Shown here: piece by piece, positions 8,799-62,365 of the stretch
Position numbering within the stretch: the first letter of the stretch is position 1
Layout: the number at the start of each line of letters is the position of its first letter
NCBI GenBank assembly: GCA_964467345.1
Contig: CAYXPY010000006.1
Span: forward strand, 5,303-69,302
Length of the DNA stretch: 64,000 bases
From: an uncultured Thermoplasmatales archaeon
GTDB lineage: Archaea > Thermoplasmatota > E2 > DHVEG-1
Direction of reading: 5' to 3'
Translations under genes and position numbers: made by a program
Notes under the pieces: generated by a model
The model's database searches: none
The model's input: only the letters and a program-made list of their open reading frames with translations
Told to the model about the DNA's origin: nothing

Positions 8799-11210
8799 AT
8801 GAGAGAAAGAATCATGAGAAAGTTAATCATCCTTTTTGTAGGCCTTTTTGTGATCGCAGCAAGCATACTGCCAACCATTGGTGGCATGCCCTCAGAAACA
8901 ACAACTGCCATATCATCCGGTTCCGATGATGTTTCGATCACCATTCAACAAACAGGAGACATCACCAGCATTCATTATACCATTAACGATTTTTCCTTAA
9001 CACCGGTGGATATCGACAGCAAACAATACGTCAAGGTAAGCTTACACAGTGAACCAACCAGCCTCATCGCCGGTGCACCTGCACTTCCCTCGATAGCCCG
9101 CAGTATCATCATACCATCACAGGCAACCATGGCCCTACATGTCACCGCCGCATCCTATGAAGACTATGAGAACATCCTGGTCGCTCCCTCAAAAGGTAAC
9201 CTGCTTCGGACCGTGAACCCAGCGGACGTCCCCTATGAGTTCGGCGCAATCTACACCCAAGACACCTGGTATCCCTCAACTCTTGCACAACTCGAGGAAC
9301 CCTATTACTTGCGTGATTTTCGAGGTCAGGTCGTACGAATTTTCCCCTTCCAATACAACCCTGTTCAAGGGACGTTACGTTTCTATCATGATATCACTGT
9401 TGAGGTCGCCCCCTTGAGTCAGGTTCCATCAAGCAGCCTTACCCAGTATGCACTCACAACGATAGACAGTGATTTCCTCCCCATCTATCAGAATCATTTC
9501 ATAAACTACAATACCGCTAAATACGACCCGGTGTCCGAACAGGGCAATATGCTGGTCATCACCTATGATGCGTTTTATACGACCATGATCCCCTTTGTCG
9601 AATGGAAAAACCTCAAAGGAATTCCCACAGAGATGGTCAATGTCTCATCGATCGGTAACGCAGCCGCGATAAAAACATACGTCGCTGATTACTATAACGC
9701 CCATGGCCTGACGTTCTTGCTCCTCGTTGGTGATGCTGCACAGGTACCAACGTATTCATTAAGCGGGGTGTATTCTGACCCTAGCTATGGATACATTGTA
9801 GGGTCTGACCATTATGCTGATCTTTTCGTCGGCAGGTTCTCCGCAGAAAACGTCGAGCAGGCAGCAACACAGGCCAACCGGACCATTGACTATGAGAGCA
9901 ACCCACAGATTGACGCACAATGGTATGCGAAAGGGGTCGGTATCGCATCAAGCCAAGGGGTTGGAGATGATAATGAATACGATTATGAACATGTTCGAAA
10001 TATCCGCACACTTCTGCTCAATTTCACCTATACGGTCGTCGATGAACTCTACGATGGAAGCCAGGGTGGTGCAGACGCCCCCGGAAACCCGACACCAACG
10101 ATGGTCGCAGCTTCCTTAAACGAAGGACGCAGCATCATAAACTACTGCGGGCATGGCTCTTCAACATCATGGGGCTCAAGTGGATTTAGCAACACCAACA
10201 TCTATGCTTTAACCAACGATAATATGCTTCCGTTCATTGTATCCGTTGCTTGCGTTAACGGGGCATTTGTCAGTGGGACTTGCTTTGCTGAAGCTTGGTT
10301 GCGGGCAACTCACAATGGTCAACCGATAGGTGCCATTGGAGCATATATGTCCACTGTTAGTCAAAGCTGGGACCCCCCAATGGAAGCACAAGATGAATTC
10401 AATAACATCCTCATCGGATTATACCCTGAGAACCAAAAGACCACCTATGGCGCTCTCTGTTTCCATGGTGCGATGTCCATGATCGATGACTACGGATCAA
10501 ACGGAGAATATGAAGCAGATGCATGGACTGTCTTTGGCGACCCCTCAGTACAGGTTCGCACAAACGTCCCCTCCGTCATGGAAGTGATTCATGACAATTT
10601 TATCTCCAATGGTGCTGAGACCTTCGAGGTTGAAGTGGTTGGTCTTCCCAATGCACTATGCGCAATCTCTGCAGAAGGAGACCTCTTAGGCAATGGATAT
10701 ACAGACCAAACCGGACATGCCACCATCCAGTTCTTCACGCCACTGGGCGTCTCCGGTGAAGTTCAGCTTATGGTGACCGGATTTAACATGATACCGTACA
10801 GCGCGACACTTTCGGTTGGGGAACCAAACCTACCACCAGAGACACCAGAGAAACCAACCGGGCGACTCACCGGTGAACCAGGAAAAACCTATATGTATTC
10901 GTCAGTAACAACAGACCCGGACGGCGACGGACTCTACTACATGTGGGACTGGGGTGACGGGACCTATAGCGACTGGCTTGGCCCCTATTCATCAGGAAAC
11001 ACGGTGTCGACGCAGAAATCATGGGACACAGAGGGCAACTACTCTATCAGAGTCAAAGCAAAAGACAACTATGACCATGAGACTGCTTGGTCGGAGCCGC
11101 TGGACGTCACCATGCCGTTTAACGTCCCCTTCATCGTCAGATTCGTCGATTTCTTCCAAAGTCTCTTCCCGCATCTCTTCCAATTCTTCGAAAGACTGCT
11201 AACACTCTAA
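8799..11210 (+). CDS. Secreted C25 (gingipain-like) cysteine peptidase with propeptide and C-terminal PKD domain
   Basis: Signal peptide; LLVGD, GRFS, INYCGHG (His), VSVACVNG (Cys), FGDPS; PKD DPDGDGLYYMWDWGDG. Confidence 0.92.
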   Translation: MRERIMRKLIILFVGLFVIAASILPTIGGMPSETTTAISSGSDDVSITIQQTGDITSIHYTINDFSLTPVDIDSKQYVKVSLHSEPTSLIAGAPALPSIARSIIIPSQATMALHVTAASYEDYENILVAPSKGNLLRTVNPADVPYEFGAIYTQDTWYPSTLAQLEEPYYLRDFRGQVVRIFPFQYNPVQGTLRFYHDITVEVAPLSQVPSSSLTQYALTTIDSDFLPIYQNHFINYNTAKYDPVSEQGNMLVITYDAFYTTMIPFVEWKNLKGIPTEMVNVSSIGNAAAIKTYVADYYNAHGLTFLLLVGDAAQVPTYSLSGVYSDPSYGYIVGSDHYADLFVGRFSAENVEQAATQANRTIDYESNPQIDAQWYAKGVGIASSQGVGDDNEYDYEHVRNIRTLLLNFTYTVVDELYDGSQGGADAPGNPTPTMVAASLNEGRSIINYCGHGSSTSWGSSGFSNTNIYALTNDNMLPFIVSVACVNGAFVSGTCFAEAWLRATHNGQPIGAIGAYMSTVSQSWDPPMEAQDEFNNILIGLYPENQKTTYGALCFHGAMSMIDDYGSNGEYEADAWTVFGDPSVQVRTNVPSVMEVIHDNFISNGAETFEVEVVGLPNALCAISAEGDLLGNGYTDQTGHATIQFFTPLGVSGEVQLMVTGFNMIPYSATLSVGEPNLPPETPEKPTGRLTGEPGKTYMYSSVTTDPDGDGLYYMWDWGDGTYSDWLGPYSSGNTVSTQKSWDTEGNYSIRVKAKDNYDHETAWSEPLDVTMPFNVPFIVRFVDFFQSLFPHLFQFFERLLTL

Positions 11211-11219
11211 TCTACCGCT

Positions 11220-11260
11220 GCGTTCTTACCTTCTTTTCGGTAAGAGCGCTCTCTCTTCCT
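11220..11260 (+). terminator. Stem-loop followed by a pyrimidine tract between the gingipain and deiminase genes
   Basis: GCGTTCTTACC / GGTAAGAGCGC 11-bp stem (one G-U), 8-nt loop, then TCTCTCTTCCTTT. Confidence 0.45.
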
Positions 11261-11338
11261 TTAAAAAAAAATAGGTTAAAACACAAAGAGATTCGACTAA
11301 AAAAAAGATTGTATGAAACATTAGGGGGATAACATACG

Positions 11339-13111
11339 ATGCTGAAAAAAAACAAATTATTGGTAAGCATGCTGATGGTGTGTCTTCTTCTTAGTATGAC
11401 TAACATCGGTGCTTCTCATGCTAGAGATCAAACCACTGGTATAAGTACAGATTATTCTTTTATCTTTTCATCATCATACAGTTCTATCCGTCAACCCGCT
11501 GAATTCGAGCCAATGGAAGGCGTACTCATCCGCTATCCTTTTGGTATTACCTATAATGTCATCAAGGAAATGGCAGAAGACGTCAATGTGGTGACCATTG
11601 TTGCCAGCGTCTCAGAAAAAAACACAGTTCTTACTCAATATCAGAACCAGGGTGTGGACATTAGTCATTGCTCTTTTCTCATTGCTCCCACGGATACGCA
11701 TTGGACCCGAGATTATGGCCCTTGGTTTATCGTAACAGAGGATGACGCGCAAGGGGTTGTTGATTTCACCTATAACCGACCTCGGCCGAATGACGATCAG
11801 ATCCCTACCAAATATGCGATTAACCAAAGTCTCCCGGTGTTCGATATGCCTCTTGTGGCTACCGGGGGAAACTATATGACCGATGGACAAGGGATTGCGA
11901 TATCAACGACCTTGATCTGGGAAGAAAACACAGGGTATACCCATGAACAGATCAATCAGATAGTAGAGCAGTATCTTGGGATTGACACCTACCATGTAGT
12001 TCCTGATGTCAATGGTGAATACATAAAGCATGTTGATTGTTGGGGGAAGTATCTATCACCAGACACGATTTTGATCAGAGAGGTTCCTACGAGCCATTCG
12101 CAGTACGACGAAATCGAGACAGCCGTGGATTATTTCGAGTCTCAACTCAGCTGTTATGGGACACCGTATACTGTTGTTCGGGTCTATACACCAGAAAATC
12201 AGCCCTATACGAACTCGCTTATTTTGAATGATAAAGTATTAGTTCCTATCACTGGGAGTCAATGGGATGATGATGCGATATTGTCCTATCAACAGGCGAT
12301 GCCGGGCTACGAGGTGTTAGGTTTTACTGGATCATGGGCTTCCACTGATGCACTTCATTGCCGAGCGATGGGGATAACTGACCGTTACATGCTTTACATC
12401 GAGCATACCCCTTTATACGGCGATCAAACCAGTCAAACAGGATATGATGTCCAAGCCAGGATTATCCCCTACAGCCAGCAGAACCTTGTTTCTTCAGCAA
12501 CAGGGGTCTATTGGGGGATTGATAACAGTAGCTGGAATTTTATTCAGATGCAGTCCTTGGGAAATGATTACTATCATGCGGTGATTCCCCCGCAGGTCAA
12601 TGGAACCATGGTGTCGTATTATATCCATGCAGAGGATAGCTCTGGTCGGACTGAGGACCATCCATATATCGGTGCACCTGATGCTCATTTCTTTACCGCA
12701 AAAGGAGATGTTCAGCAGAACACGGCTCCCGAGACCCCTCAGAGACCCTCCGGTCAGTCTTCTGGGAAGGTCGGCTCGATTTATCTGTATTCAACGACGA
12801 CTACCGATGCTGATAATGACATGGTGTACTATCTCTGGGATTGGGGGGACGGGAATTTCAGTGAATGGCTCGGCCCGTTTGGCTCAGGTGCGACTGCCAC
12901 GGCGCAACATTCATGGTCTGTCAAGGGGACGTATTCGGTTCGGGTGAAGGCAAAGGATGTATACGACGCTGAGAGCAACTGGTCTGAACCTCTTTCGGTG
13001 ACCATGCCACGAAGCTTTTCCAATGTATGGCTGTTCTTTGAGAAACTGCAACAACGGTTTCCTGTTCTCTACCTGTTTTTTGAGGAATTTTTCAGCCGGC
13101 TTGGCGTGTAA
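11339..13111 (+). CDS. Secreted agmatine/peptidylarginine deiminase (PAD_porph family) with PKD domain
   Basis: Signal peptide; PAEFEP, WTRDYGP, GGNYMTDG, HVDCW, ALHCRAM (catalytic Cys); PKD DADNDMVYYLWDWGDG. Confidence 0.9.
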   Translation: MLKKNKLLVSMLMVCLLLSMTNIGASHARDQTTGISTDYSFIFSSSYSSIRQPAEFEPMEGVLIRYPFGITYNVIKEMAEDVNVVTIVASVSEKNTVLTQYQNQGVDISHCSFLIAPTDTHWTRDYGPWFIVTEDDAQGVVDFTYNRPRPNDDQIPTKYAINQSLPVFDMPLVATGGNYMTDGQGIAISTTLIWEENTGYTHEQINQIVEQYLGIDTYHVVPDVNGEYIKHVDCWGKYLSPDTILIREVPTSHSQYDEIETAVDYFESQLSCYGTPYTVVRVYTPENQPYTNSLILNDKVLVPITGSQWDDDAILSYQQAMPGYEVLGFTGSWASTDALHCRAMGITDRYMLYIEHTPLYGDQTSQTGYDVQARIIPYSQQNLVSSATGVYWGIDNSSWNFIQMQSLGNDYYHAVIPPQVNGTMVSYYIHAEDSSGRTEDHPYIGAPDAHFFTAKGDVQQNTAPETPQRPSGQSSGKVGSIYLYSTTTTDADNDMVYYLWDWGDGNFSEWLGPFGSGATATAQHSWSVKGTYSVRVKAKDVYDAESNWSEPLSVTMPRSFSNVWLFFEKLQQRFPVLYLFFEEFFSRLGV

Positions 13112-13535: not shown

Positions 13536-16500
13536 TCATCTTTTGCGAGAGAATCCAGCGATGATTCGTTTTGTAAAAAACGTTACTATTAACAAAATTA
13601 GCGATATAATCGACAGATAAAAACTGATGCTTGGTCCCCATGAGCAGGGTACAGCTGTTTGCACTGATTGACCTGGTATCGAGATATCAAGAGTGCCACT
13701 CCCCATGAAACTGCCGACCCCTACCTGTGTTAATTGGCTTAGCGCATAATAAAAAACAACCACCGTAAGAAAGATGATTATGATGCTTAAAACAGATATC
13801 ATTATGGTTGTTTTCCGCAGTTTTTTCTCTGTTAACAGACTGAAAAAAATCAAAAGACAAGTGACACCGACTAGTATAGCTAATACTCCCAACACCATCG
13901 TGACTTCAGATGGCACAGCACTGATTTCCCCTCCTGTCGCATTCGATGATTTCGTCAGAGTGATCAATTTTGAGGGTATGACCATGGTCGTGGTCGCTGT
14001 TGATACGGTGTTAGTTTCGCCACTTAATGCCCACCATGGTGATATAAGTGCAATAATGAGCAAACCAATAGCAAAAAGTTTCAGACAGGTAATGACCTGT
14101 CGTTTCCATATGAGGAACCCAAGGGTAGCGATCAGGAAAGCAATGCCAAGATAGAGAACCACGGTATGAAGAAGTGACCCTTGCGAGGTAAGGATATCCA
14201 TTTTTTTATCTCCGCGGATTTGAATCTGTTGCTGGGCGATAGGTTCGTCATTTTCACGAACAAGGATTTCGTAATCCCCTGGTGGTAACGATGCTGTAAC
14301 AGTCCCGTTCTGTTGAATCGAAATCGACTTAGTTTTTTCGTGCCTCTGAAGAGATACCTCCCCTTTTGAAAGCAAGTCTGCATAGGAGTTAAAAACGGAG
14401 AGAACAAGAACAAACTCTGCAGGAAACATTACCGCCAGGCTTGTGGTTTGTTTAAGGCTGACTTCTTGCTCCACTCGAAATGACTTATAACTCAGACTCA
14501 GCTGATACGATGCTGGGAGAAGATTTTTGAACTGATGCGATCCGTCCTTGCTTGAGTCACCTAGTATAGTGGTCGGGATAGCCATCTCACTGCTCACCAG
14601 TGTTGGATTGACATCAACAGCAGGGGGAAAACCCCAGGTGTCAGTGACCGTCACGGAGAGGCTGTATCGGTCAAGGGAAAATGATTTTTTCATATCGATA
14701 AATCGACGGATGCTATTGAGCTTTACTTGTTCTTCTCCAATTAAAAATCCTTGATAGAAGAGTTTCAACTGATACGTTTTTAAAGAATAACACGGGGCTA
14801 AAAGATGAGAGTTACCCTCGGAATCGGTTAGAGTTTCTGCGATGGTCGTATTGTCAATTTCTAAGATACATCGGACATTCTCCACCCCTACGTTATCCTG
14901 ATCGACCAAAGAAACACGAATCCCACCCTGGGGTCGACAGCGGACCCGGATAGCGGTGTCTTTCGTTAGATTCACAAGACCAAAACCAATGTACTGACGC
15001 TGCTTGGCAAATCTTGGGTTCTCCCGATAGATTTTCACAAGATACTCACCGGAATCAAGATCAGGGAAACGGATCTTCTTGAACAAAGAGAGATTCTTCC
15101 AATCAAAAATCCCCAGGGCCATCTGAATCTTCTGTCGCAGGTTCTTCCCGGTCATATTCAGCGAAATGGACCCTAGGGAAAGACGACCGACTGACCCTGA
15201 GGAACGAAAACTGTTCTGCTGATACAGCTCTGCATAGATATATGATACGTTTTTCCCCAACGCCGCAGAGAACAAGGATCCCAGTGGGACCGATCGAGCA
15301 AAATGAGCATACACGGTCAATGTAAATCGTTCTTTTTGTTCCTCTCCCTCAGTGGCGTTTCCTCGAAAGACCGGGATATCTTTAATCAGTTTTTGATAGA
15401 TCGTGGATTCTTCGTCAATTCTGGGATATCCCCCGGTTTCAACAGTTAAAAACTCTACTTTGTATTGATAGATTTTTCCCTGGTCAAGGGTGGTTTGATG
15501 GTTGCCGTTTTCATAAGCGTTTCGTGTAAGATGTAAATTTCCTGTATCTGCTTCAAGTCCTGGTAATTTGATGTTCTGCTTCGCAAAAACTTTGATTTGA
15601 ACGCCGTCATCTGAGCCCTCGGTAATCCCTGTGTTCGAGTTAAAAATGAGTCCGTGGACTTTCCCTGAACCTGCATCACCAAGACAGATCCATCCCTTGG
15701 GCCCTAGTTCCACATCGTCCTCTGTAGAAAGCACTAGCTCGCGTTCTGTGCTCTCTGGGTTCTGAGGCACGGAATACTCTTGGACGGTGTTATCTGCTGA
15801 ATAGATATACACCATGGGTAATATTTCTCCAACGTTCATTTTCTCTATCGATGCACTCCGGGATTTAATAGAAGTGATGCCCCCGATAACACCATCCAGT
15901 ACTGTTGGTTCTTCAATCGTAATAGATTTTAACATCTCATGATGACCGTCGATTAGTATTTTTTTTGCATTCGTTGGGCTATAGTAATAGGTGTAAATGT
16001 TATCTGACTTCAGATCGCCGCGTGGGGATATGCATTCTAACCGTACCCGGACCATCAGATTTCCCTGCACCAGTATTGTTTTTGTAATCTCTGTAGACCA
16101 CGATGTACCAACATAATCAGGTTCACCAGGTACACCATAACGGAAATCAAAAAATCCTACCTGATCCAAATTGTAGGTCTCAACAGCAGTAGAATTTGGT
16201 TTAAATTTAATGGCGGAAAGAGCGATGGGATTGCCAAGCAGCTGACCCTTCTGTATCACTGCATAGATGACAAAGTTCTCCTGCTTGATTCCGTAATAAT
16301 CAAAATCTATTTTTTGACCAGGGATTGGTTCATAAAAATAATGAGTATCCTCGACAGTCACATGCGTTGGGTAATCTGCTGGTGCTGTTTCTTTTGAATC
16401 GTATAGGATAAAATATTTTTCCTTTCCTGTTGCTACCTCAGGAATTAAAAACACAAGGCTGCATGATTTGATATGCGTCTCATCAGCGTGTTCGATGTCG

Positions 16501-16799
16501 TAGACCTGTGATTCGATCTCCTGCATGCCTGATCCGTCGTCCACACCGACACGGACTGAATGGGCTATCTCGTTTGTCCCCCAGCAAGGGTTCTCGAATG
16601 TAATTCTGAAATCGATGGGTTGGTATTTGGCGGTTTCATTACTTGTATCATATGGAATTGTGATTTCTTGTTTGTACGCAAGGGTATCGATCGTCGTCTC
16701 AAGATAGTCCTGAGCAGGTATCCCTGGAACAACAACAGAGGATAGGAACAGTAAAGTAATTATTAACCTGAGAAAATCCTGCTGAATCGTCGATATCAT
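13536..16799 (-). CDS. Large exported multidomain protein (1087 aa) with Ig/carboxypeptidase-regulatory-like repeats and about 4-5 C-terminal TM helices
   Basis: Long ORF with a signal-like N-terminus, beta-rich repeats (VSLVDQDNVGVENV, VTVTDTWG) and a hydrophobic C-terminal region. Confidence 0.75.
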   Translation of the reverse strand: MISTIQQDFLRLIITLLFLSSVVVPGIPAQDYLETTIDTLAYKQEITIPYDTSNETAKYQPIDFRITFENPCWGTNEIAHSVRVGVDDGSGMQEIESQVYDIEHADETHIKSCSLVFLIPEVATGKEKYFILYDSKETAPADYPTHVTVEDTHYFYEPIPGQKIDFDYYGIKQENFVIYAVIQKGQLLGNPIALSAIKFKPNSTAVETYNLDQVGFFDFRYGVPGEPDYVGTSWSTEITKTILVQGNLMVRVRLECISPRGDLKSDNIYTYYYSPTNAKKILIDGHHEMLKSITIEEPTVLDGVIGGITSIKSRSASIEKMNVGEILPMVYIYSADNTVQEYSVPQNPESTERELVLSTEDDVELGPKGWICLGDAGSGKVHGLIFNSNTGITEGSDDGVQIKVFAKQNIKLPGLEADTGNLHLTRNAYENGNHQTTLDQGKIYQYKVEFLTVETGGYPRIDEESTIYQKLIKDIPVFRGNATEGEEQKERFTLTVYAHFARSVPLGSLFSAALGKNVSYIYAELYQQNSFRSSGSVGRLSLGSISLNMTGKNLRQKIQMALGIFDWKNLSLFKKIRFPDLDSGEYLVKIYRENPRFAKQRQYIGFGLVNLTKDTAIRVRCRPQGGIRVSLVDQDNVGVENVRCILEIDNTTIAETLTDSEGNSHLLAPCYSLKTYQLKLFYQGFLIGEEQVKLNSIRRFIDMKKSFSLDRYSLSVTVTDTWGFPPAVDVNPTLVSSEMAIPTTILGDSSKDGSHQFKNLLPASYQLSLSYKSFRVEQEVSLKQTTSLAVMFPAEFVLVLSVFNSYADLLSKGEVSLQRHEKTKSISIQQNGTVTASLPPGDYEILVRENDEPIAQQQIQIRGDKKMDILTSQGSLLHTVVLYLGIAFLIATLGFLIWKRQVITCLKLFAIGLLIIALISPWWALSGETNTVSTATTTMVIPSKLITLTKSSNATGGEISAVPSEVTMVLGVLAILVGVTCLLIFFSLLTEKKLRKTTIMISVLSIIIIFLTVVVFYYALSQLTQVGVGSFMGSGTLDISIPGQSVQTAVPCSWGPSISFYLSIISLILLIVTFFTKRIIAGFSRKR

Positions 16800-16973: not shown

Positions 16974-17312
16974 CTACGGTGTAATAACGGTATCTGATTT
17001 CATTACAATAGAGACAACCTCTTGCATGTCGATAATGCGACCTATCGCTAGTTTCTTATCGAGTTCATAAAAACCAATACAGGTTTGACAAGCCACGAGG
17101 TCAACCCCTGCTTTGGAAAGCCCGGTGAGGGCATCAAGGACCGACGATTGGGTGGTAAGCAGATTGACTGCTGAGTTATAAAATATGATCGTATCTGGTT
17201 TTTTTGGTGATGCCCAGAGTTTACGTAGGAACCCACCTATCATGGTTTTTCCCAGCTCATCGCTTCCTTTCCCGAGAACCTCGCTATGTATAATGATTGT
17301 TGTTTTTGTCAT
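16974..17312 (-). CDS. DsrE-fold, YedF-like sulfurtransferase-related protein
   Basis: LGKGSDELGKTMIGGF...PDTIIFYNSAVNL...ACQTCIGFY...GRIIDM. Confidence 0.8.
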   Translation of the reverse strand: MTKTTIIIHSEVLGKGSDELGKTMIGGFLRKLWASPKKPDTIIFYNSAVNLLTTQSSVLDALTGLSKAGVDLVACQTCIGFYELDKKLAIGRIIDMQEVVSIVMKSDTVITP

Positions 17313-17412: not shown

Positions 17413-18291
17413 ATGAAAAAAACAAAGTTCATCCCCAGTATTGTTCTTCTTTTATTTTTCCTTATTTCTCTTTCTGTCCCTCCAGTAATTGGTCAAGAAC
17501 CCTCATCCTCCGTTATTTATGTTGGTGGAACTGGGCTAGGGAACCATTCTAGTATCCAGAGTGCCCTTCTTACCGCTCCGATTGGTAGCGTTATCTTTGT
17601 TTACAACGGTACCTATTATGAGCATCTCATCATTGAAAAATCGATTCACCTTATCGGTGAAAACAAGGATACGACTATTATTGACGGTAATGGCGGTTCT
17701 TTTGTTGTAACACTTGCCGCTGATCATATCACTCTTTCTGATTTTACCATCACAAATAGCCAGAAAAAATTCCCATTCGCTGGTATCTATGTCACCTCAG
17801 ATTTCAACACGATTTCAGACACCATCCTAACCGATAATTATTATGGGATGCAATTAGGCTATTCAGCCGGTGGTAATCTGATTGTCAACAATTCGATTTT
17901 CCAGAACAGACAATGCGGGATTTACTTTAACCATGCATCAAACAACCGACTCATCGGCAATGTCGTCTCCGATCATCCCGTGAACGGATTTGGGCTCTAT
18001 GAATTCTCAAATAACAATGTGATTGTGAATAACACGTTTTCTTTGAATCAGCATACAGGGATAAATATCCGAGACTCCTATCAAAACCAGGTGATTGGAA
18101 ATAGATTTGATCAAGACGAGATAGGGTTGCATACACCATCTCCTGAGTATCAGACCACAGCTCGTGACAATGTTTTTCTGCAGAATCCAGTGGCCTTGGA
18201 AGAAGAGCGTGATGCAATGGTGTTCACCGTTGTTATCTTCGATATTTTAGTGTTCTTTGTGTTTGTCCTGTTAAGAAAAATATCGTTGTGA
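17413..18291 (+). CDS. NosD/right-handed parallel beta-helix protein, membrane anchored
   Basis: IYVGGTG...SIQSA...NGTYYEHLII...IGENKDTTIIDG, repeated N-x-I-x-x-N units, C-terminal TM helix. Confidence 0.85.
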   Translation: MKKTKFIPSIVLLLFFLISLSVPPVIGQEPSSSVIYVGGTGLGNHSSIQSALLTAPIGSVIFVYNGTYYEHLIIEKSIHLIGENKDTTIIDGNGGSFVVTLAADHITLSDFTITNSQKKFPFAGIYVTSDFNTISDTILTDNYYGMQLGYSAGGNLIVNNSIFQNRQCGIYFNHASNNRLIGNVVSDHPVNGFGLYEFSNNNVIVNNTFSLNQHTGINIRDSYQNQVIGNRFDQDEIGLHTPSPEYQTTARDNVFLQNPVALEEERDAMVFTVVIFDILVFFVFVLLRKISL

Positions 18292-18315: not shown

Positions 18316-18750
18316 TTAGGAGCGTTTTTTTCGAAGAAAGACCACTGTGGCTGTCATGACAAGAGCAAAGAGGATAAGCAGCATTAGCACATAGACAAGA
18401 GTATAAGCGATGTACCGGTCAATGATTAGGACAAAGAGAGAGTAGGCGATAATAAACCCAATACCAGCAAAACCAAACATCTGAGCAGACGGTCTTGTTT
18501 GAATGAGACGTATACAGGCGATGATGAGCAGGGCACCAGAGACAAACAAGGCAAATGCTAACGTAATTGAGTTGATGATATACCTCGATGAATAGCTCCA
18601 GATAAATCCCTGGTATGCCGTGTTCAGAGCAACCAACGAGGCAAACAACGACACGCTTCCGACCGCAAGATAAGCTGAATAGACAAGCAGCGTTTTTTTA
18701 TTTGTAAACAAGCGTGTTTCTGCGTTATTTTCTCGGTCTGATGGCATCAT
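18316..18750 (-). CDS. Four-TM hypothetical membrane protein
   Basis: Hydrophobicity pattern; overlaps the end of the upstream TIGR04282-like gene. Confidence 0.65.
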   Translation of the reverse strand: MMPSDRENNAETRLFTNKKTLLVYSAYLAVGSVSLFASLVALNTAYQGFIWSYSSRYIINSITLAFALFVSGALLIIACIRLIQTRPSAQMFGFAGIGFIIAYSLFVLIIDRYIAYTLVYVLMLLILFALVMTATVVFLRKKRS

Positions 18751-19435
18751 CGTCCTCTGTCAGTATCTTCTTCTGCTGTAAGTATGTTATGGTCTGTGAG
18801 GATTTAAAAGATGTATTTTTGTTCCGTTTGATGAGCTGTTTCAAATCATCAAGGGTATCGACATCTCTCCATTGTGGTAAAAGAATAACGTTCTTTTTGG
18901 TGTCCTGAATCTTCTGTAAGGTCTGTGTAAGTACGGAACCTGTCCCCCACTCAACATCATCAAAGACCAAGGGTTCAAAGCTGCTGCGTTGAAACCCAAT
19001 CAAGTAGTATCCTCCATCTGAGGCGGGCCCCAGTACGATGTCATGGGTGTACAGCTCTTGAAATGCTTGTTCAAGGTATGTTACCGGGAGATCTGGGCTG
19101 TCACTTCCTATGAGGACGACCCGCTGGAACCCTTCCTGGCATACATCGGTTAAACACTGTTTCATCCGCTCCCCCAGATTAGACCCCTTCTGTGGGACAA
19201 ACACGAGGTTGTGACCAAGCCATTCTTGGAATTTTTCTTTTTCATGCATAGGCAGAAAACAGATGCGAAGCTGTGCATTGATTTTCTGTGTAGTGACAAG
19301 TGTATCATGAACAAAGCATCGATAGAGCTCTTGGACAATGGTCTCGTCTAGGTCTGCAGAAAGCCTTAGTTTTACTGTTCCCTTCTGTGGGTATTTTACA
19401 AACAAAAGGAGACAACAATCGTGTGTATCGGTCAT
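18725..19435 (-). CDS. TIGR04282-family (DUF2064) glycosyltransferase-like protein, arsenosugar/rSAM-associated
   Basis: FVKYPQKGTVKLRL, QKGSNLGERM, IGSDSPDL, VLGPASDGGYYLIG, DVDTLDDL. Confidence 0.88.
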   Translation of the reverse strand: MTDTHDCCLLLFVKYPQKGTVKLRLSADLDETIVQELYRCFVHDTLVTTQKINAQLRICFLPMHEKEKFQEWLGHNLVFVPQKGSNLGERMKQCLTDVCQEGFQRVVLIGSDSPDLPVTYLEQAFQELYTHDIVLGPASDGGYYLIGFQRSSFEPLVFDDVEWGTGSVLTQTLQKIQDTKKNVILLPQWRDVDTLDDLKQLIKRNKNTSFKSSQTITYLQQKKILTEDDDAIRPRK

Positions 19436-20577
19436 TGTTTCTGCTCCTGCGGTTCAGCAGCATCAAGAGCTTCTTCAAAGAGCTGGAGCACATCGATAAT
19501 TTCGACAGCGGTATGGGTTTTCTTCAGTTGCTCGTAGCAGGTCAGACAGGTACAGACCAGGGTTGGTGCATCCTTCTGCACCTCGGCGAGATACTGTAAA
19601 CGACGTGGTTCGTTACCCTTGTCGTATCCATGATTCCATTGATAACAGCATGAGGATCCTTGAGGTGTCGCCTGTTCAACAAGATCACCAAACATAAGGA
19701 TGGTTGTTCGGACTGCCGCACCCGGGGGTGTTTCTTTTTTGAACCGACAGGAATCATGCACAGTTAACTTTCCTCGTATTTTTCTGTCCGGATACTTGTT
19801 TTTGTATCTGAGGAGATATTCGACAACGCTGAGCACCTCGAAATGTTCGTTATATATTTTTTTTACTTGTTTCACCGCCTCGAAGCATTCCGCGCAAGAG
19901 GTGATAACGATCTTTGGATCGACTGCCTTGATTTTCTCATGAAGCAACCTTAGACAAGAGTCAGCCTGATCAAACTCACCTTGGAGCAGATGCGGTGCAC
20001 CACAACAAGCAGTCACTCCCCCAAGCACAGCATATCTCTCACCACTATGATCAAGGAGCCGTAGGGTCTGGCGCACTGTTTTTGTCGAGTAGATATAACA
20101 GCCAGGATAGAACAGCACGTCAGCGTTCTTCACTGGTACCTCCTCCATGAATCGTGCAAGATCCCGTGACATGATTTTTTTGGCTGACACATACAACTTT
20201 TGAATAATGGCTTTTATACCCTTAAGATTCGGTCCTTTGATGAGAAGATATCGATGGTAGCCCCATGGCTTCTGATCCCGAATCTTCCATTTGAGAACGC
20301 GCATCATGAGGTCTCTACGGATGTTGACTGGGCAGACGGGGACGCATTTCCCGCATTGAGTACAGTGGAAGGTGAACTGACTGATCATCGGAGGAACCGG
20401 TTGGTCCTCTTGTGTTGCCTGATTTAACTGCTGCATCGAAAAGGAGTCTTTTGTGACCGGACAAGCGTCCAGACAGCGATGACACCGGATACATAGATCA
20501 AGATAGTGACTGACTGTCTTTCTTAGGTAACCTTCGGTAGACAAAGGAGATTCTGATGCTTCACTATGAACAGGCAT
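19432..20577 (-). CDS. Fe-S protein with two 4Fe-4S motifs and CCG domains (HdrD/GlpC-like)
   Basis: CIRCHRCLDACP, CTQCGKCVPVCP, FYPGC, CCGAP, SCAEC, HDSC, CTCLTC. Confidence 0.85.
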   Translation of the reverse strand: MPVHSEASESPLSTEGYLRKTVSHYLDLCIRCHRCLDACPVTKDSFSMQQLNQATQEDQPVPPMISQFTFHCTQCGKCVPVCPVNIRRDLMMRVLKWKIRDQKPWGYHRYLLIKGPNLKGIKAIIQKLYVSAKKIMSRDLARFMEEVPVKNADVLFYPGCYIYSTKTVRQTLRLLDHSGERYAVLGGVTACCGAPHLLQGEFDQADSCLRLLHEKIKAVDPKIVITSCAECFEAVKQVKKIYNEHFEVLSVVEYLLRYKNKYPDRKIRGKLTVHDSCRFKKETPPGAAVRTTILMFGDLVEQATPQGSSCCYQWNHGYDKGNEPRRLQYLAEVQKDAPTLVCTCLTCYEQLKKTHTAVEIIDVLQLFEEALDAAEPQEQKQ

Positions 20578-20607
20578 GATGGTCTCACAATGTGTGTATG
20601 ATATAAA

Positions 20608-21327
20608 CTATTTTTCTGTTGATTGTTCCTCTGTGTTTTTCCTTTTTTGCTTCATTTGCCGTCGTGCATACCAGCTGATAAGCACGAGGATGCAAACACT
20701 GATAACAAGAACCCCTATCAGCTCCCAGGGAATGCGCCCCTGTGTTAGACCTTGAGTCAGAGCATCAGTTCCCACCACGACGATAATCGTCCCAGGGAGC
20801 ATGCACAACCAGGACCAGAACACATAGGTTCTAAAGGAGACCTTTGTCAGACCAAACCCATAGTTCAGTAAGGTAAAAGGAAACAGCGGAATCAGTCGTG
20901 TCAGTCCCACAAGGATCATCCCTTGCTCCTCGGTGAGCCGGTCAAGCTTTTGCATAGTCTTGTTTTTCAAAAGCCATCGTGCGACAGAGTCCCGGGCAAG
21001 GTACCGGGCGATGAGAAACGTAAGGCTTGCACCCACTGTTGATGAGATGCTGATGAGAATCACTCCGATGATGGAGCCAAACAACGCCCCTGCGATGACC
21101 CCAAAGATGGTACCAGGGATGGTCGCAATCACCGCACCGATGTAGATGACAAAGAACGCAATCGGTCCCCAGATACCCAGGGAGGTGATCCACTCCTGCA
21201 ACTCCTGGAGGTTGTCTCCGAAACCAAGGCTGTTCATCACGATAAAAAGAACGATGATAAGGGCAATGAAGACGACTGGTTTCACCCAGTCGTTTGTCTT
21301 TCTGGATTGACTGTTGTTTTCGTTCAT
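20608..21327 (-). CDS. TVP38/TMEM64 (DedA/VTT family) membrane protein
   Basis: GALFG...SSTVGASLTFLIARY, LTRLIPLFPFTLLNYGFGLT, MLPGT; start reassigned to ATG 21327 (MNENN). Confidence 0.88.
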   Translation of the reverse strand: MNENNSQSRKTNDWVKPVVFIALIIVLFIVMNSLGFGDNLQELQEWITSLGIWGPIAFFVIYIGAVIATIPGTIFGVIAGALFGSIIGVILISISSTVGASLTFLIARYLARDSVARWLLKNKTMQKLDRLTEEQGMILVGLTRLIPLFPFTLLNYGFGLTKVSFRTYVFWSWLCMLPGTIIVVVGTDALTQGLTQGRIPWELIGVLVISVCILVLISWYARRQMKQKRKNTEEQSTEK

Positions 21328-21343
21328 AGACCTCAGGGTGGTC

Positions 21344-21364
21344 TTTTTTTTTTTTTTTTTTTTT
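21344..21364. repeat. 21-nt homopolymer (T21 on +, A21 on the coding strand) between arsS and the DedA gene
   Basis: Counted directly; overlaps the arsS TAA stop. Confidence 0.85.
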
Positions 21365-22322
21365 ATACCAATGCTCCGCCGCAGGAAGACCCATGACCTG
21401 CAGTACATCCGAAGCAATGATCCGCGGTTGCTATCTCTCGGGTTGACAGCACTGATTTATTAAACTGTTTGATATGACGTGGAGTTGTTGCCATGACTGA
21501 GAGGTTTGCTGCAAGGTTAAAATCACAGTCATAGAAGGTCCCGTCCCATGCGATGTTGATCTGATGACGACACATCAATGAAGGAAGCGTCTGGGGGTTG
21601 AATGATTCTTTCAGCAGCCTCATGTAGTGTGGTTTTTTTTCTTTTAACACATCAAGAAAACGTCCCAGCGGCATGTTGGTGAGGGTGATTAGTCTTGTGA
21701 ACTGTATGTTGTAGTGTTCTGCAAGGTATTTCCGGTACTCATTCTCAAGGGCTTTCTGTTCTGGTGGGAGCACGGGTTCAAGCGGATTAAACACGAGCGT
21801 CAGAGGCAGATGTGGTTGGATCCCGTAGCCTAGGGTATTTAACAACTGTAGTGCTGTGATGCTTTTTTCAAAGATACCTTCTCCTCGTTGAAGGCGGACT
21901 TCTTCTTCGAGATAGCAGGGGAGTGAAGCGACCAGTTCTATCCCAAGCTCTTTGTACAACAAAGGTAAATCGTTATACTCTTGTTCAAGGAGGATGGTGA
22001 GATTTGTCCGTAGTTGTACTCGATGCTGTTGTGCCACAAGAGCTCTTAGGAATTGTGTGAGATGCGGATGAAGCTCTGGTGCTCCACCGGTGATATCAAC
22101 GAAGACTGAGGGGAGTTTTTCAGTGACCGCTAGGATATCTTTCATGGTTTCCCAGCTCATCTGTTCTGTGCGGTTTGGTGATGCTTGAATATGGCAATGG
22201 TGGCAGGTTTGATTGCAGATGAACCCAAGGTTGATTTGTATGGTCTGAAGGTCAAGGCATCGTAATGTAGTACCAGTCAGGTCGAAAATTCGCTGGTCGA
22301 ATTGGTTTTTCTTCTGAGACAT
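21363..22322 (-). CDS. arsS: Arsenosugar biosynthesis radical SAM protein ArsS-like (TIGR04167/DUF3641)
   Basis: QINLGFICNQTCHHCH (CxxxCxxC), DITGGAPELH, ASLPCY, LTNMPLGRF, MCRHQ...YDCDFN, HCFGCTAGHGSSCGGAL. Confidence 0.88.
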   Translation of the reverse strand: MSQKKNQFDQRIFDLTGTTLRCLDLQTIQINLGFICNQTCHHCHIQASPNRTEQMSWETMKDILAVTEKLPSVFVDITGGAPELHPHLTQFLRALVAQQHRVQLRTNLTILLEQEYNDLPLLYKELGIELVASLPCYLEEEVRLQRGEGIFEKSITALQLLNTLGYGIQPHLPLTLVFNPLEPVLPPEQKALENEYRKYLAEHYNIQFTRLITLTNMPLGRFLDVLKEKKPHYMRLLKESFNPQTLPSLMCRHQINIAWDGTFYDCDFNLAANLSVMATTPRHIKQFNKSVLSTREIATADHCFGCTAGHGSSCGGALV

Positions 22323-22395
22323 AAAGCTGGCTCCCTTAGGTATTGTTCTTTGATTGGAATTTACTTCCGCTATTTATCCATTTGCTTCCTTTTTT

Positions 22396-23100
22396 TTAGG
22401 GTTGTTGCCAGGGGTAGAAGCGTGCTAATTTTTCTGCTGGCATGCCACACCAGTATAAAAAGATAATGAGGGTGTCCCTGAATGCGGTATACAAGAGTCC
22501 TTCTTGGTTCCATCGTCGGTCTGAGGTGATGACTGTTACAGGAAGAATGATAATGTCGTCCTTGTGTTTTTTTATCCGACGCATCAGTTCAACATCCTCC
22601 ATTAACGGAATGTCAAGGTACGCTCCTATGGAATCAAAATAGGATTTCCGCAGGAAGATTGTCTGATCTCCATACGGCGCGCGGGTCATCCGGGATCGAA
22701 GCGTGGAAAACATCGCGATGATTCGCAGGAGAAACCGTGGTGAATCTATCTGTAAGCTGAATGCTCCGCCGACAAGCCCGGGGTCCTGAAGGGTTTCTTG
22801 GATACGTGTGAGTGCATTTGTTGGCAGCAAGGTGTCCGCATGCAGAAAGATGAGAATGTCGCCTGAGGCATGGGCTGCTCCGAGGTTCATCTGGCGGGCT
22901 CGCCCTGCTTGACAGCTGTATTTCTGGATGGTTTCATCGGTAATCACCTGAAGGCTATCTTGTGAGGGGCTCCCATCGACGACGATGATCTCAACAGGTT
23001 TCTCTGCTGCGAAACGTCGGAGTGACTCAAGAAGCCCATTAATGATGTTTCCTTCATGCAGGACCGGGATAATGATTGAAAATGCCGGGGAGTCTGGCAC
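22396..23100 (-). CDS. TIGR04283-family GT2 glycosyltransferase, arsenosugar/rSAM-associated
   Basis: SIIIPVLHE, VVDGSP, GRARQMNLGA, FLHADT, YGDQTIF, LMEDVEL, TSDRRW; likely GTG start at 23100 behind a GGGGA Shine-Dalgarno (track start 23124). Confidence 0.88.
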   Translation of the reverse strand: MPDSPAFSIIIPVLHEGNIINGLLESLRRFAAEKPVEIIVVDGSPSQDSLQVITDETIQKYSCQAGRARQMNLGAAHASGDILIFLHADTLLPTNALTRIQETLQDPGLVGGAFSLQIDSPRFLLRIIAMFSTLRSRMTRAPYGDQTIFLRKSYFDSIGAYLDIPLMEDVELMRRIKKHKDDIIILPVTVITSDRRWNQEGLLYTAFRDTLIIFLYWCGMPAEKLARFYPWQQP

Positions 23101-27864: not shown

Positions 27865-28359
27865 TTATTTGGTTAGAACGGATCGGACGAATGCATCGAT
27901 ATGTTCTTTGCCGTTTTTTATCGTCCCTTTCCTCATCTGTAACCCCAGGAACGAATCTGATACCGCCATACCAAGACTACCAAGGGTTTGTTGCATCATC
28001 TGTCTGGGTTTCCCCTTTGGGTCTGGAATACCACCACCAGTGACAAACAGGAATACCTTTTTTCCTTTGATGTTCTGCGCAGAGGAAAAAAATGTACTAA
28101 TGAACGGTGTTGCGCTTCCTCCCCAGGTTGGTGACCCAACGATGACTGTCTCGTATTTCCCTAAATCGACGGTTGTGTTTTTTATTGGAAGCTGCTGTTG
28201 TTTCATCGCCGCCCGTCCCGCAGTAAAAAACCCTGGTCGTTTCAACGCCTCGATTTCGATTAGGTCGACATCTGCTTGTTTTTGTTGTAGTGTGTCTGCA
28301 AGTAGGGTTGCGATAGCTTTGGTGTTCCCGGTCCTTGAATAATAGACAATCCCAATCAT
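27865..28359 (-). CDS. Flavodoxin-family protein
   Basis: YYSRTGNTKAIA, IVGSPTWGG. Confidence 0.85.
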   Translation of the reverse strand: MIGIVYYSRTGNTKAIATLLADTLQQKQADVDLIEIEALKRPGFFTAGRAAMKQQQLPIKNTTVDLGKYETVIVGSPTWGGSATPFISTFFSSAQNIKGKKVFLFVTGGGIPDPKGKPRQMMQQTLGSLGMAVSDSFLGLQMRKGTIKNGKEHIDAFVRSVLTK

Positions 28360-37422: not shown

Positions 37423-38409
37423 TTATTCGTATGTATACCGCTCAAGTTCATAACTTTTCTTTGGCCGACTCTGTGTATACTGTGCTCGCTGGATGAACTG
37501 ACCACAGTTACTTCCGATCTGGTTCTCCTCAGGAACACCAATACTCAGTATCACATCATAACCTTTTTGTCGGAATTGTTCCACAAGTATTCCCGCTGAT
37601 GCCGCATCATAGGGGTTGATCACTGAGAGAAGACCGCGTTCCAATGATCGAACCGTCGGGTTCATCGGTGTAAGTTTTATCAGAAAGCAGTCAGAATCAA
37701 AAACAGCCCTGAGTTCTTCGACATCAAGAGGATATCCTTTTACCGCTGCGAAGTTCAGAGTGATTTTTTTATCGCCATTCTCCGGTTGAAAAAAACGTCC
37801 CCCATACTGTTTTATTTGTTCAAAAGACCATTTTTTCGCAGGAATCAGTTCATCGCGTTTCTTCTCATCAGAGGTGTGAAGCGAGAATTGGAGTTGAAAA
37901 CGCCCTTCAGGATAATATCTGTTTTTGATAACGATGAGCTCATCAAAAAACCGTTCCGCAGCTGTCGTGGAAGGGGCAATGGAAGAAAGTGATATATGCA
38001 ACGATCCTGCATCATATCGGGTGGGTAGTTCCTGTAGCACATCCAGTACCGCTGGATTAAGGGAGGGTTCCCCCATGCGCGCGAACTGGATTTTGAATTT
38101 TTCTGTGAGCGGTTTGCCCTCTGGGAATCTTCGGCGTACCATAAAATCAATCTGTGAAATGATCTCCTCAGCGGTAAGACTTCCTTGAAAATCCCCTCCT
38201 GCATCACACATCTTGCACTGGACCGGACAGCCAAACATTGAGGATACGATCAGCACCCATTTCTTCTCTCGGGACAAGGGCGGCTGAATCGATTCGACAC
38301 ATTCGATCAAGTATCTCGGATGACTTTGTTTTCCTGATAGGTCCTGCCGTAGTTGCATCACATAGACCTTTGCTATCTCATCCCGCCCGTACTCAGCAAT
38401 AATCCTCAT
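37423..38409 (-). CDS. RlmN/Cfr-like radical SAM protein (atypical)
   Basis: VSSMFGCPVQCKMCDAGG, ARMGEPSLN, QFSLH, GSNCGQ; lacks the Cys of the RlmN T-L-C-V-S-S-Q motif. Confidence 0.8.
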   Translation of the reverse strand: MRIIAEYGRDEIAKVYVMQLRQDLSGKQSHPRYLIECVESIQPPLSREKKWVLIVSSMFGCPVQCKMCDAGGDFQGSLTAEEIISQIDFMVRRRFPEGKPLTEKFKIQFARMGEPSLNPAVLDVLQELPTRYDAGSLHISLSSIAPSTTAAERFFDELIVIKNRYYPEGRFQLQFSLHTSDEKKRDELIPAKKWSFEQIKQYGGRFFQPENGDKKITLNFAAVKGYPLDVEELRAVFDSDCFLIKLTPMNPTVRSLERGLLSVINPYDAASAGILVEQFRQKGYDVILSIGVPEENQIGSNCGQFIQRAQYTQSRPKKSYELERYTYE

Positions 38410-39320
38410 GATGCGTCCTCTCTTTCCTTTAGATACCGCTGTACCATCATCGCAGCAAACATCCCATCACCAACAGCAATGCCGGTCTGCCGGTATGTTC
38501 CCCGGACCACGTCCCCAGCAAAATACAATCCTGGAAGGGATGTCTGCGGTAACTTGTTACTCTCCGAGTAATACCTCAAGAGACGAGAGGTGAGAAACGG
38601 GAGATTTGGTTCCCGTCCGCAGGCGATGAGAAGATAATCCGCGGACCGTTCGATTCCCTTATCTTGTTGTCTGCATTTCAGCAACAATCCTTTAGAATCA
38701 TGCTGGATTTTCTGTACGACACAACCTACCTGAATGCTTGCCCCCTTGGCTTGGACCTGCCTTTTCAGAATCGGTAAACAGACTGGCTGTGAACGGGACA
38801 GGATAGTAACCTCATGACCCTTCTCTAACAACGTCAACGTATAATCAAAAGCGATGTCTCCTCCACCGATCACACTGATCCTTTTTTTCGTCCTGGATGG
38901 TATTTTCCTTGGCTCGTAGAACAAACGTTTTTCTTCAATGGCAGCGGCACCAGGGATAGATAGTTTCTTAGGCTTGGTTCCTGAAGCGATGATAACCGCG
39001 GAGGAAACAACACGTCCCTTCTTGGTCTGGACAGTGAAAGCATTGTTACTCTGTTCCACACGCTGTACCTCTGATTTTGTAATGGAAACCCCCACCTTGA
39101 ATAGATGCTGGACAAACTGGTCTGCAAGTGTCGTCCCACTGATTCCTTGGGGGAACCCCGGGTAGTTCTCAACAAGGAACGCATGTCTGAGCAGACCACC
39201 AGGCTGCTGACTCTCCAGGACCATGGGGTGTAACCCGGCTCGTTTGAGAAAGATTGCCGCAGCAATCCCTGCAGGACCCGCACCAAGGATGATTACCGGT
39301 GTTTCTTTACCCATGTACAA
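38406..39320 (-). CDS. TrxB-fold NAD(P)/FAD oxidoreductase lacking the CXXC motif
   Basis: GAGPAGIAAA, VENYPGF, IIASGT, IGGGDIA, FAGDV; LFYEP where CATC normally lies. Confidence 0.85.
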   Translation of the reverse strand: MYMGKETPVIILGAGPAGIAAAIFLKRAGLHPMVLESQQPGGLLRHAFLVENYPGFPQGISGTTLADQFVQHLFKVGVSITKSEVQRVEQSNNAFTVQTKKGRVVSSAVIIASGTKPKKLSIPGAAAIEEKRLFYEPRKIPSRTKKRISVIGGGDIAFDYTLTLLEKGHEVTILSRSQPVCLPILKRQVQAKGASIQVGCVVQKIQHDSKGLLLKCRQQDKGIERSADYLLIACGREPNLPFLTSRLLRYYSESNKLPQTSLPGLYFAGDVVRGTYRQTGIAVGDGMFAAMMVQRYLKEREDAS

Positions 39321-48942: not shown

Positions 48943-49092
48943 CTGAAAACCTTGAGATATTGAATGTGTAACACATTTTTAGGGAATCTATATAAATATC
49001 TTTTGTAAAATTTATTTAAAGAGATCTTTTATTCCTAAAATATGGGAGTTATCTCCTAGAATAGAATCATCATGATTAAAGGGGAGTAAAGA

Positions 49093-49911: not shown

Positions 49912-50017
49912 ACACACCTTCCTTATCCCCTTCTTTATGCACCGTAACAAATAAAGTCACATAATCTTCTTAAACCACTGTAGTATACGACTAACAAGGT
50001 TTGAAAGCGGGAGACAT

Positions 50018-50737: not shown

Positions 50738-50746
50738 TACAACTTG

Positions 50747-50790
50747 TTTATGATTCTATATGATGTAATCATAAAATATTTATGCTATTA
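50747..50790 (+). promoter_or_regulatory. Inverted repeat overlapping a BRE/TATA-like element upstream of crtI
   Basis: TTTATGATT-N11-AATCATAAA (50747-50775) running into AAAATATTTATG. Confidence 0.35.
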
Positions 50791-50813
50791 CACATTCGTT
50801 GATAAAAAAAGGG

Positions 50814-53181: not shown

Positions 53182-53186
53182 TTTCT

Positions 53187-55066: not shown

Positions 55067-55075
55067 GAGGTTCTT

Positions 55076-55531: not shown

Positions 55532-55542
55532 TTCACTGCGGT

Positions 55543-62300: not shown

Positions 62301-62365
62301 TCCTCTTTCTCTTTTTTTTTTTCTGGAAACATTCATACCATCATAATTCATGGTCCAGGTTTGAA

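Follow-up and report, generated by a model that had tools for sequence, protein, structure and literature searches.

A Thermoplasmatota ArsS cassette with an HdrD-like Fe-S protein in the position of the DedA-coupled flavin disulfide reductase

We analysed a stretch of 64,000 nucleotides (the window) from an uncultured Thermoplasmatales archaeon (GenBank assembly GCA_964467345.1, contig CAYXPY010000006.1, positions 5,303 to 69,302), in which six genes, all on the minus strand, are packed within positions 18316-23100 around the gene of an ArsS radical S-adenosylmethionine (SAM) protein (21363-22322). Our reading, to which we assign a probability of about 0.55, is that this locus represents the Thermoplasmatota version of a widespread and partly characterised ArsS cassette, in which an HdrD-like Fe-S protein replaces the DedA-coupled flavin disulfide reductase. 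The generic cassette has four parts, namely ArsS, the DUF2064/TIGR04282 and family 2 glycosyltransferase (GT2)/TIGR04283 proteins, a membrane protein of the COG0398 DedA type, and a thiol/disulfide oxidoreductase adjoining or fused to DedA. In bacteria this last part is a class-I disulfide oxidoreductase working with FAD and NAD(P)H, whereas here, in a strictly anaerobic archaeal lineage, it is an HdrD-like protein with two [4Fe-4S] and two CCG sites.

The bacterial side of this comparison comes from a survey of ArsS loci. Specifically, metagenome contigs were pattern-scanned with an ArsS alignment, which gave 80 loci, one of them (L014) a Thermoplasmatota cassette; the other 79, many on short contigs, make up together with the genome locus L005 the non-Thermoplasmatota set of 80. 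Open reading frames (ORFs) were called, and the neighbours within 7 kb of arsS were clustered and labelled by NCBIfam and iterated hidden Markov model (HMM) searches in six frames. A DedA gene was found in 18 of the 80 loci and a FAD-dependent class-I pyridine-nucleotide disulfide oxidoreductase (PNDR) in 17; the two occur together in 11 loci and are adjacent in all of them. An ArsM-like methyltransferase gene is located directly upstream of arsS in 17 loci, while GT2/TIGR04283 is present in 16, TIGR04282 in 14 (often fused to GT2, with the L016 protein passing both models), an AhpD-like TIGR04169 protein in 13, an OlsE-like fatty-acid hydroxylase in 12 and a DUF547 protein in six. Since DedA is found near ArsS in 18 of the 80 loci, five of which also carry an ArsM-like gene (L031, L039, L066, L080 and L083), it is a regular member of the cassette, and not the extra that the initial annotation had taken it for.

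In the loci whose ArsS is most similar to the archaeal one (49-56% identity), the genes are arranged as ArsS-DedA-PNDR-DUF2064~GT2 (L026 and L027; the tilde denotes a fusion), an order that is found also in the Acidobacteriota locus L097 and that parallels the archaeal ArsS-DedA-CCG-DUF2064. The CCG protein, first described as an addition to the operon, holds in the archaeal cassette the slot of the bacterial flavoprotein. The bacterial PNDR carries the redox-active disulfide motif CLNTGC; that of L027 matches NF004991 with 802 bits, and its annotated relatives belong to Acidobacteriota and Thermodesulfobacteriota. In L097 (GCA_033549365.1, 2113-15844) the cassette interrupts a pentose-phosphate operon, the order being ROK kinase, 6PGD, G6PD, 6PGL, cassette, transketolase, HAD phosphatase, RpiB and PGI, a setting that hints at a link to pentose supply.

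Both versions of the reductase are also found fused to DedA. A DedA~PNDR fusion of 720 amino acids directly follows ArsS in L093, and two end-to-end DedA~CCG fusions (P0082 and P0363) were recovered; together these fusions support a physical coupling of the membrane protein with its reductase. The junction of P0082 is A-rich, and the DNA of the two loci L009 and L010 is 100% identical and may come from one sample, so that an artefact was considered. This was ruled out by P0363, a second fusion that is only 44% identical to the first, which indicates that the fusion is maintained and is not a sequencing error.

The CCG protein itself (19432-20577) matches the Pfam CCG family (PF02754, 41.4 bits against a cut-off of 20.6) and 4Fe-4S dicluster families. 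It contains two CX2CX2CX3CP ferredoxin motifs (C29, C32, C35, C39 and C72, C75, C78, C82), followed by two complete CCG motifs of the form C-Xn-CC-Xn-CXXC (C160/C191/C192/C228/C231 and C277/C310/C311/C344/C347). Among 40 orthologues, the cysteines C29, C35, C39, C72, C75, C78, C82, C160, C191, C192, C228, C231, C277, C342, C344 and C347 are invariant, and the conservation of C310 and C311 is 90% or more; C32, read from the window sequence, is on neither list, which leaves seven conserved cysteines out of the eight in the ferredoxin motifs. The AlphaFold model (pLDDT 83.8) finds as its best fold the EtfD protein of M. smegmatis (9ojn, E 1.9e-9, TMq 0.59), followed by LutA (9a6l, E 3.5e-6) and HdrB (8rwn/7bkb, E 5.6e-4), with an identity to the solved relatives of 13-18%. 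None of the NCBIfam equivalog cut-offs was reached, the best score being that for TfrB (69.9 against 385 bits) and that for GlpC being 49.3 against 278 bits, and no cytochrome b gene that could encode an HdrE-type partner is present in the locus. Orthologues are few: among 1.8 billion representatives, 35 clusters match at E<=1e-30, and every member of the group whose context was read lies within an ArsS cassette. In agreement with what had been asked of the gene at the outset, it is kept beside arsS in every related locus examined.

A distant HdrD-like CCG protein of 393 amino acids is also encoded, together with a rhodanese and two paralogous membrane proteins, upstream of ArsS-DedA on a high-GC contig (L018, 3052-6620). 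This locus was considered as a bacterial ArsS locus with both CCG and ArsM genes and was not used as evidence: its "ArsM" is a generic UbiE/CpaM-like methyltransferase, and its CCG gene lies about 2.7 kb away. The similarity of that CCG protein to the window protein is weak (34 bits), and it may represent an independent recruitment near ArsS.

A third kind of partner is provided by the AhpD-like protein, which never occurs together with DedA (none of the 13 AhpD loci has DedA and none of the 18 DedA loci has AhpD), a mutual exclusion that fits alternative thiol-redox partners. From their motifs we infer that the flavoprotein with CLNTGC, the HdrD-like CCG protein and the AhpD-like protein with CxxC share thiol/disulfide chemistry and not low-potential electron donation. 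Because these three interchangeable partners have this chemistry in common, and because the reductase is coupled to DedA and not to ArsS, a disulfide-reductase module is favoured. Therefore, we read the CCG protein as a non-orthologous, anaerobe-type replacement of the DedA-coupled disulfide reductase and not as a radical-SAM reductant; a Fe-S version of the reductase suits a strict anaerobe.

The enzymes around this module exceed the curated thresholds of all three TIGR families, and the six gene identities first proposed are retained together with their HMM memberships. The ArsS protein passed the TIGR04167 search that had been suggested for it, with 396.8 bits against a cut-off of 300 over model positions 6-303 of 303, and it carries the cysteine-rich DUF3641 domain (PF12345, 171.9 bits). 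Its radical SAM CX3CX2C motif (C36/C40/C43) is invariant, and the C-terminal HCFGCTAGHGSSCGG is conserved, as is the motif HCFGCTAGxGSSC. A search of PDB sequences with ArsS gave only a generic radical-SAM match (YydG). The GT2 protein scores 240.7 bits with TIGR04283 (cut-off 182) and 61.1 bits with PF00535, and finds among solved structures weak GT2 matches only, such as GpgS (E about 0.004-0.009). "Arsenosugar biosynthesis glycosyltransferase" is the NCBIfam family name for TIGR04283, and glycosyl transfer is accordingly a prediction from sequence. The DUF2064/TIGR04282 protein (18725-19435), of the nucleotide-diphospho-sugar-transferase fold and CofC-like, reaches 197.5 bits with TIGR04282 (cut-off 134) and 123.2 bits with PF09837, and has as its sole solved relative 3CGX (198.7 bits), a structural-genomics entry without assigned function. 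Both transferase genes share one operon with arsS.

The cyanobacterial ArsS of Synechocystis sp. PCC 6803 turns DMAs(III) into DDMAA, according to the account of Xue et al. 2019 given in bioRxiv 10.1101/2022.09.23.509062, by adding a 5'-deoxyadenosyl radical to DMAs(III) in a reaction that is redox-neutral (PMC13598754). By analogy with this enzyme, the only one from which the reaction is known, the archaeal ArsS would cleave SAM and attach the resulting 5'-deoxyadenosyl radical to a (di)methylarsenical in the trivalent state. The methylarsenical would be supplied either by an ArsM whose gene lies in another part of the genome or by the environment, and the adenosyl-arsenical would then probably be turned by the two transferases into a riboside, which could be an arsenosugar or a derivative linked to a lipid. 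The DedA/HdrD-like pair may constitute a membrane-bound module for disulfide chemistry, acting in one of two ways: it could start from imported pentavalent species and deliver the arsenical in a trivalent, thiol-bound form, or it could keep carrier and catalytic cysteines reduced, candidates being the CxxC of a YedF-like protein encoded nearby and the cysteine-rich C-terminus of ArsS. In this scheme DedA would move substrate or product across or within the membrane, and the fatty-acid hydroxylase of the bacterial clusters, together with DedA, gives a hint of a membrane link.

Several points weigh against this picture. An ArsM HMM, built from 19 ArsS-adjacent ArsM-like sequences, found no ArsM-like ORF in any of the six frames of the 64-kb window, nor in nine related archaeal loci with about 128 kb of sequence (192 kb in total); one of the 19 sequences, that of L018, was afterwards recognised as a generic methyltransferase. 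The best matches (E 5e-5 and 0.0025) are likewise generic methyltransferases, a PCMT-like protein in L012 and an MTS-type protein at 62252-63013 of the window. The window locus therefore has no adjacent arsM-arsS operon of the cyanobacterial type, and the absence of arsM remarked on in the initial annotation holds over the entire window. Many of the closest bacterial ArsS-DedA-PNDR loci, L097 for instance, also lack an adjacent ArsM gene. In addition, the ArsS-adjacent ArsM-like proteins that were scanned fall below every curated ArsM cut-off (310-355 against 500 bits and 164-236 against 263 bits), with the exception of the L090 protein, which passes NF008823 with 363 bits. The neighbour-joining tree, in which the archaeal ArsS clade falls among the DedA-PNDR loci, is without support values; some CCG proteins, EtfD and GlpC among them, may act in quinone-linked electron transfer and not as disulfide reductases; and the cyanobacterial ArsS is the only characterised component, the roles of all the others being deduced from gene context.

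These points bear directly on the question of whether the archaeal cassette is concerned with arsenic at all. In the alternative case, ArsS would add its radical to another soft nucleophile, such as a selenium or sulfur species, the product would be some other adenosyl or ribosyl conjugate or a glycolipid, and "arsenosugar" would be a transferred annotation. The lack of arsM, which extends to all 10 archaeal loci, speaks for this, as do the bacterial cassettes without adjacent ArsM, among them the one set in a pentose-phosphate operon, the single characterised family member, and a conserved neighbour similar to the C-terminal domain of YedF, a protein of selenium metabolism. TIGR04167 moreover takes in selenoprotein forms (PMC13188914). 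The window ArsS is the cysteine form, and a TGA codon at the GSS-C position was seen in none of the surveyed copies with a readable C-terminal motif, 74 of which have cysteine; the use of selenium therefore gives no clue here. On the other side, the window ArsS exceeds the equivalog-level cut-off of TIGR04167 by about 97 bits, and its cysteine-rich C-terminus is kept in ArsM-linked and unlinked members of the family alike. The ArsM-like genes directly upstream of arsS in 17 of the 80 loci are accompanied in five cases by the DedA (and PNDR) module, including L031, whose ArsS is 51% identical to that of the window. Finally, arsM genes occur in other sediment Thermoplasmatota (PMC9239135; PMC10060404), which makes both a distal arsM and scavenging of methylarsenicals possible. 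We consider a non-arsenic cassette unlikely on balance.

A second alternative is that the CCG protein serves ArsS directly, as a dedicated low-potential electron donor to its radical SAM [4Fe-4S] cluster, an option raised in the initial annotation. Radical SAM enzymes do require a one-electron activation, the CCG protein does have two ferredoxin-type [4Fe-4S] motifs, and its gene is translationally coupled within the operon. Yet ArsS turnover is redox-neutral, and the bacterial protein in the same slot is an NAD(P)H/FAD class-I disulfide reductase with CLNTGC, which is no known radical-SAM activator. Both cysteine sets of the CCG protein, the hallmark of disulfide- or quinone-reactive sites, are conserved, the protein is fused to DedA and not to ArsS, and a separate flavodoxin gene is present at 27865-28359. 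With a redox-neutral ArsS and partners that share thiol/disulfide chemistry, a role in reducing the radical SAM cluster is less likely, and we regard such a donor as quite improbable.

It is very improbable that DedA and its reductase form an autonomous membrane-homeostasis module (for lipid scrambling or redox) that merely lies near ArsS and outside its pathway, as might be supposed from the COG0398 DedA-PNDR fusions described without reference to arsenic (PMC10127716), from the similar gene row of E. coli, in which no ArsS was seen, and from loci such as L019 and L039, where the pair is a few kb from ArsS, since the pair sits between ArsS and the transferase(s) in both bacterial and archaeal cassettes, the members of the small archaeal CCG group whose context was read all lie in the cassette, and AhpD-type and DedA-type ArsS loci are mutually exclusive.

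The replacement of a flavoprotein by an HdrD-like protein, in the same slot and with the same type of fusion, narrows the shared function to a DedA-coupled chemistry of the thiol/disulfide type, or possibly a quinone-linked one. This is of interest because only the first step of arsenosugar synthesis, that of ArsS, is understood, and because fusions of COG0398 DedA with oxidoreductases are an acknowledged puzzle (PMC10127716). As a tentative and rather doubtful extension, COG0398 DedA and a disulfide-type reductase might form a general two-part membrane machine, with flavin in aerobes and HdrD-like Fe-S in anaerobic archaea, which in the ArsS cassette would take up or flip a thiol-reactive metalloid compound and deliver it reduced; the product might then be a new membrane arseno-glycolipid, made without ArsM from scavenged methylarsenicals. 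The cassette also points to the possibility that widespread freshwater and sediment Thermoplasmatota transform methylated arsenic, which would be relevant to arsenic cycling in anoxic sediments. As such it is already auto-annotated in public archaeal metagenome-assembled genomes (MAGs), and Thermoplasmatota MAGs carrying it include GCA_046496795.1, GCA_026394495.1 and JAFNFT01; its value lies in the swap from flavoprotein to HdrD-like protein and in the DedA fusions, which limit the roles that the DedA-reductase module can have. It is an informative variant and not a new system.

The window DedA (20608-21327) belongs to the VTT family (PF09335, 103.7 bits against a cut-off of 33.9) and, within it, to the COG0398 (YdjX/TVP38) subfamily. 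In a phmmer comparison with the E. coli paralogues it matched YdjX (102 bits) and YdjZ (59 bits), and gave no match to E. coli DedA (COG0586) or YqaA (COG1238) at E<10. The DedA proteins adjoining the flavoreductase in L027 and L031 are much closer to it, at 249-270 bits. PNDR domains are reported to be the most frequent fusion partners of COG0398 DedA proteins, a subfamily that the same study associates with aerobic metabolism (Todor et al., mBio 2023, PMC10127716). A role as flippase for undecaprenyl or dolichol phosphate, that is, for the lipid carriers first suggested as its cargo, was set aside, the UptA model NF052604 giving only 22.9 bits against a cut-off of 250 and the subfamily being COG0398 and not COG0586. 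In E. coli K-12 (NC_000913.3, 1833401-1836063; L094) the genes ydjX (COG0398 DedA), ydjY (4Fe-4S), ydjZ (COG0398 DedA) and ynjA (AhpD-like) stand in a row, so that COG0398 DedA proteins occur together with Fe-S and AhpD-like proteins in an organism not known for arsenosugars. The window also encodes, on the minus strand, a class-I PNDR with dimerisation domain (42085-44001), which adjoins a SOUL haem-binding protein and matches the L027 PNDR with 240 bits, and a thioredoxin-reductase-like Pyr_redox_2 protein (38406-39320), which adjoins an isochorismatase; this genome therefore does encode flavin disulfide reductases, outside the cassette.

As regards the layout of the locus, the genes are separated, from GT2 to the last gene, by +73, +35, +30, -4 and -26 nt, the TIGR04282 gene overlapping the stop codon of the CCG gene by 4 nt. 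The GT2 gene (22396-23100) starts with the GTG at 23100 that had been proposed, preceded by AGGGG; a longer ORF (TTG, 23124) was set aside, as it overlaps the stop of the upstream pepD. The DedA gene starts with the ATG at 21327, behind GAGGT, where its homologues begin, and an ORF start at a TTG (21417) upstream of those beginnings was discarded. The 35-nt spacer between the arsS stop and the DedA start contains a 22-nt poly-A tract (21341-21362), a homopolymer at which slippage or sequencing errors could occur. The markers FEN1, NEP1 and PurP within the window bear out the archaeal host originally assigned, and the nearest relatives of the window are Thermoplasmatota MAGs from lake and other sediments. 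A recent horizontal transfer of the cassette was also considered and rejected, its GC content (0.44-0.49) being not distinct from that of the window (0.37-0.49).

Ten independent Thermoplasmatota contigs keep the five-gene core, the order GT2-ArsS-DedA-CCG-DUF2064 being listed for L001, L002, L006, L008, L009, L011, L012, L013 and L014. Identities go down to 51% for the CCG protein and 56-62% for ArsS. Because the order recurs in independent contigs with differing flanks (in L008 a Na/sulfate symporter stands upstream in place of pepD, and L012 is rearranged), the arrangement is not due to chance.

The sixth gene, encoding a 144-residue protein with four transmembrane segments (4-TM, 18316-18750), shows 38-92% identity across the Thermoplasmatota loci and has no significant match in NCBIfam or Pfam. 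In L012 this gene and a divergent NosD-like beta-helix gene have been relocated together to an upstream position, the rest of the cassette being intact. For this reason we do not count it as part of the core; it is probably a lineage-specific neighbour. In the window, the NosD-like gene (17413-18291, plus strand) is convergent to the cassette, and its product is a parallel beta-helix protein that carries a transmembrane anchor at its C-terminus.

Conversely, a gene overlooked in the initial annotation is a probable accessory of the archaeal cassette. It is located at 16974-17312 on the minus strand and encodes a DsrE-fold protein of 112 amino acids, similar to the C-terminal domain of YedF. 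Specifically, it matches TIGR03527 with 104 bits (cut-off 110) over positions 85-194 of 194 only, so that it is a homologue of the C-terminal domain and not a full YedF, with TusA-like N-domain and DsrE-like C-domain. All 10 Thermoplasmatota loci that extend far enough have this gene, always on the strand of the cassette, and none of the 80 other loci has it; in L012 it directly follows the DUF2064/TIGR04282 gene. Its AC-x-TC motif, which provides the conserved CxxC, is invariant in 10 orthologues, and a PDB sequence search with the protein gave no match. Beyond it, a protein of 1087 amino acids, secreted or with multiple transmembrane segments and without family match (13536-16799, minus strand), is conserved in L011.

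Elsewhere in the window, a heliorhodopsin gene (56306-57241, plus strand; PF18761, 317.7 bits) is preceded by a carotenoid cluster (region 48034-57241) comprising a UbiA prenyltransferase, a rhodanese-domain protein, a lycopene cyclase, a phytoene-desaturase-like oxidase and a phytoene/squalene synthase, then a 2-thiouracil desulfurase/DUF1722 protein. The regions 8799-13111 and 60273-62300 encode two gingipain-like Peptidase_C25 proteins, one with propeptide and PKD domains, and a Porphyromonas-type peptidyl-arginine deiminase with PKD, a set for secreted proteolysis and citrullination that is unusual for an archaeon.

The cassette can finally be compared with the known systems to which its parts are related. 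With the ArsM-ArsS pair of Synechocystis sp. PCC 6803 it has in common a TIGR04167 protein of the cysteine form, with the CX3CX2C motif and the cysteine-rich C-terminus of DUF3641, while the archaeal locus has no adjacent or co-transcribed arsM, its host is an anaerobic archaeon, and arsS is embedded with two transferases, a DedA protein and a predicted Fe-S reductase. Of the NCBIfam "arsenosugar biosynthesis" set (TIGR04167, TIGR04282, TIGR04283, the peroxidase-like TIGR04169 and the ArsM family NF038099), ArsS, TIGR04282 and TIGR04283 are shared, all above their cut-offs. A literature search returned no paper linking DedA, CCG proteins or archaea with arsS.

The comparison with bacterial cassettes is closest for L097, where, as in the archaeal locus, DedA directly follows ArsS and a redox protein stands between DedA and the DUF2064 transferase; another bacterial order is that of L064, ArsM-fatty-acid hydroxylase-GT2-AhpD-ArsS. 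The archaeal cassette differs from these in its redox protein, an HdrD-like CCG Fe-S protein and not a flavoprotein or AhpD-like protein, in its transferases, which are separate and flank the cassette instead of being fused, in the added YedF-C-like CxxC gene, and in having no fatty-acid hydroxylase, DUF547 or ArsM. With HdrD, HdrB/C, GlpC, LutA and EtfD the CCG protein shares the domain order of two [4Fe-4S] ferredoxin motifs and then two CCG domains with their full cysteine sets, the fold (9ojn, 9a6l, 8rwn/7bkb) and the association with a membrane partner, which here is the cofactor-less DedA and not a cytochrome b (HdrE) or a fused transmembrane domain. Lastly, the COG0398 DedA-PNDR fusions (PMC10127716) have the same DedA subfamily, coupled or fused in both cases to a cytoplasmic oxidoreductase of the disulfide type; the archaeal partner is an oxygen-sensitive Fe-S CCG protein and not a FAD/NAD(P)H enzyme, and its host is an anaerobe, whereas COG0398 has there been tied to aerobic metabolism.

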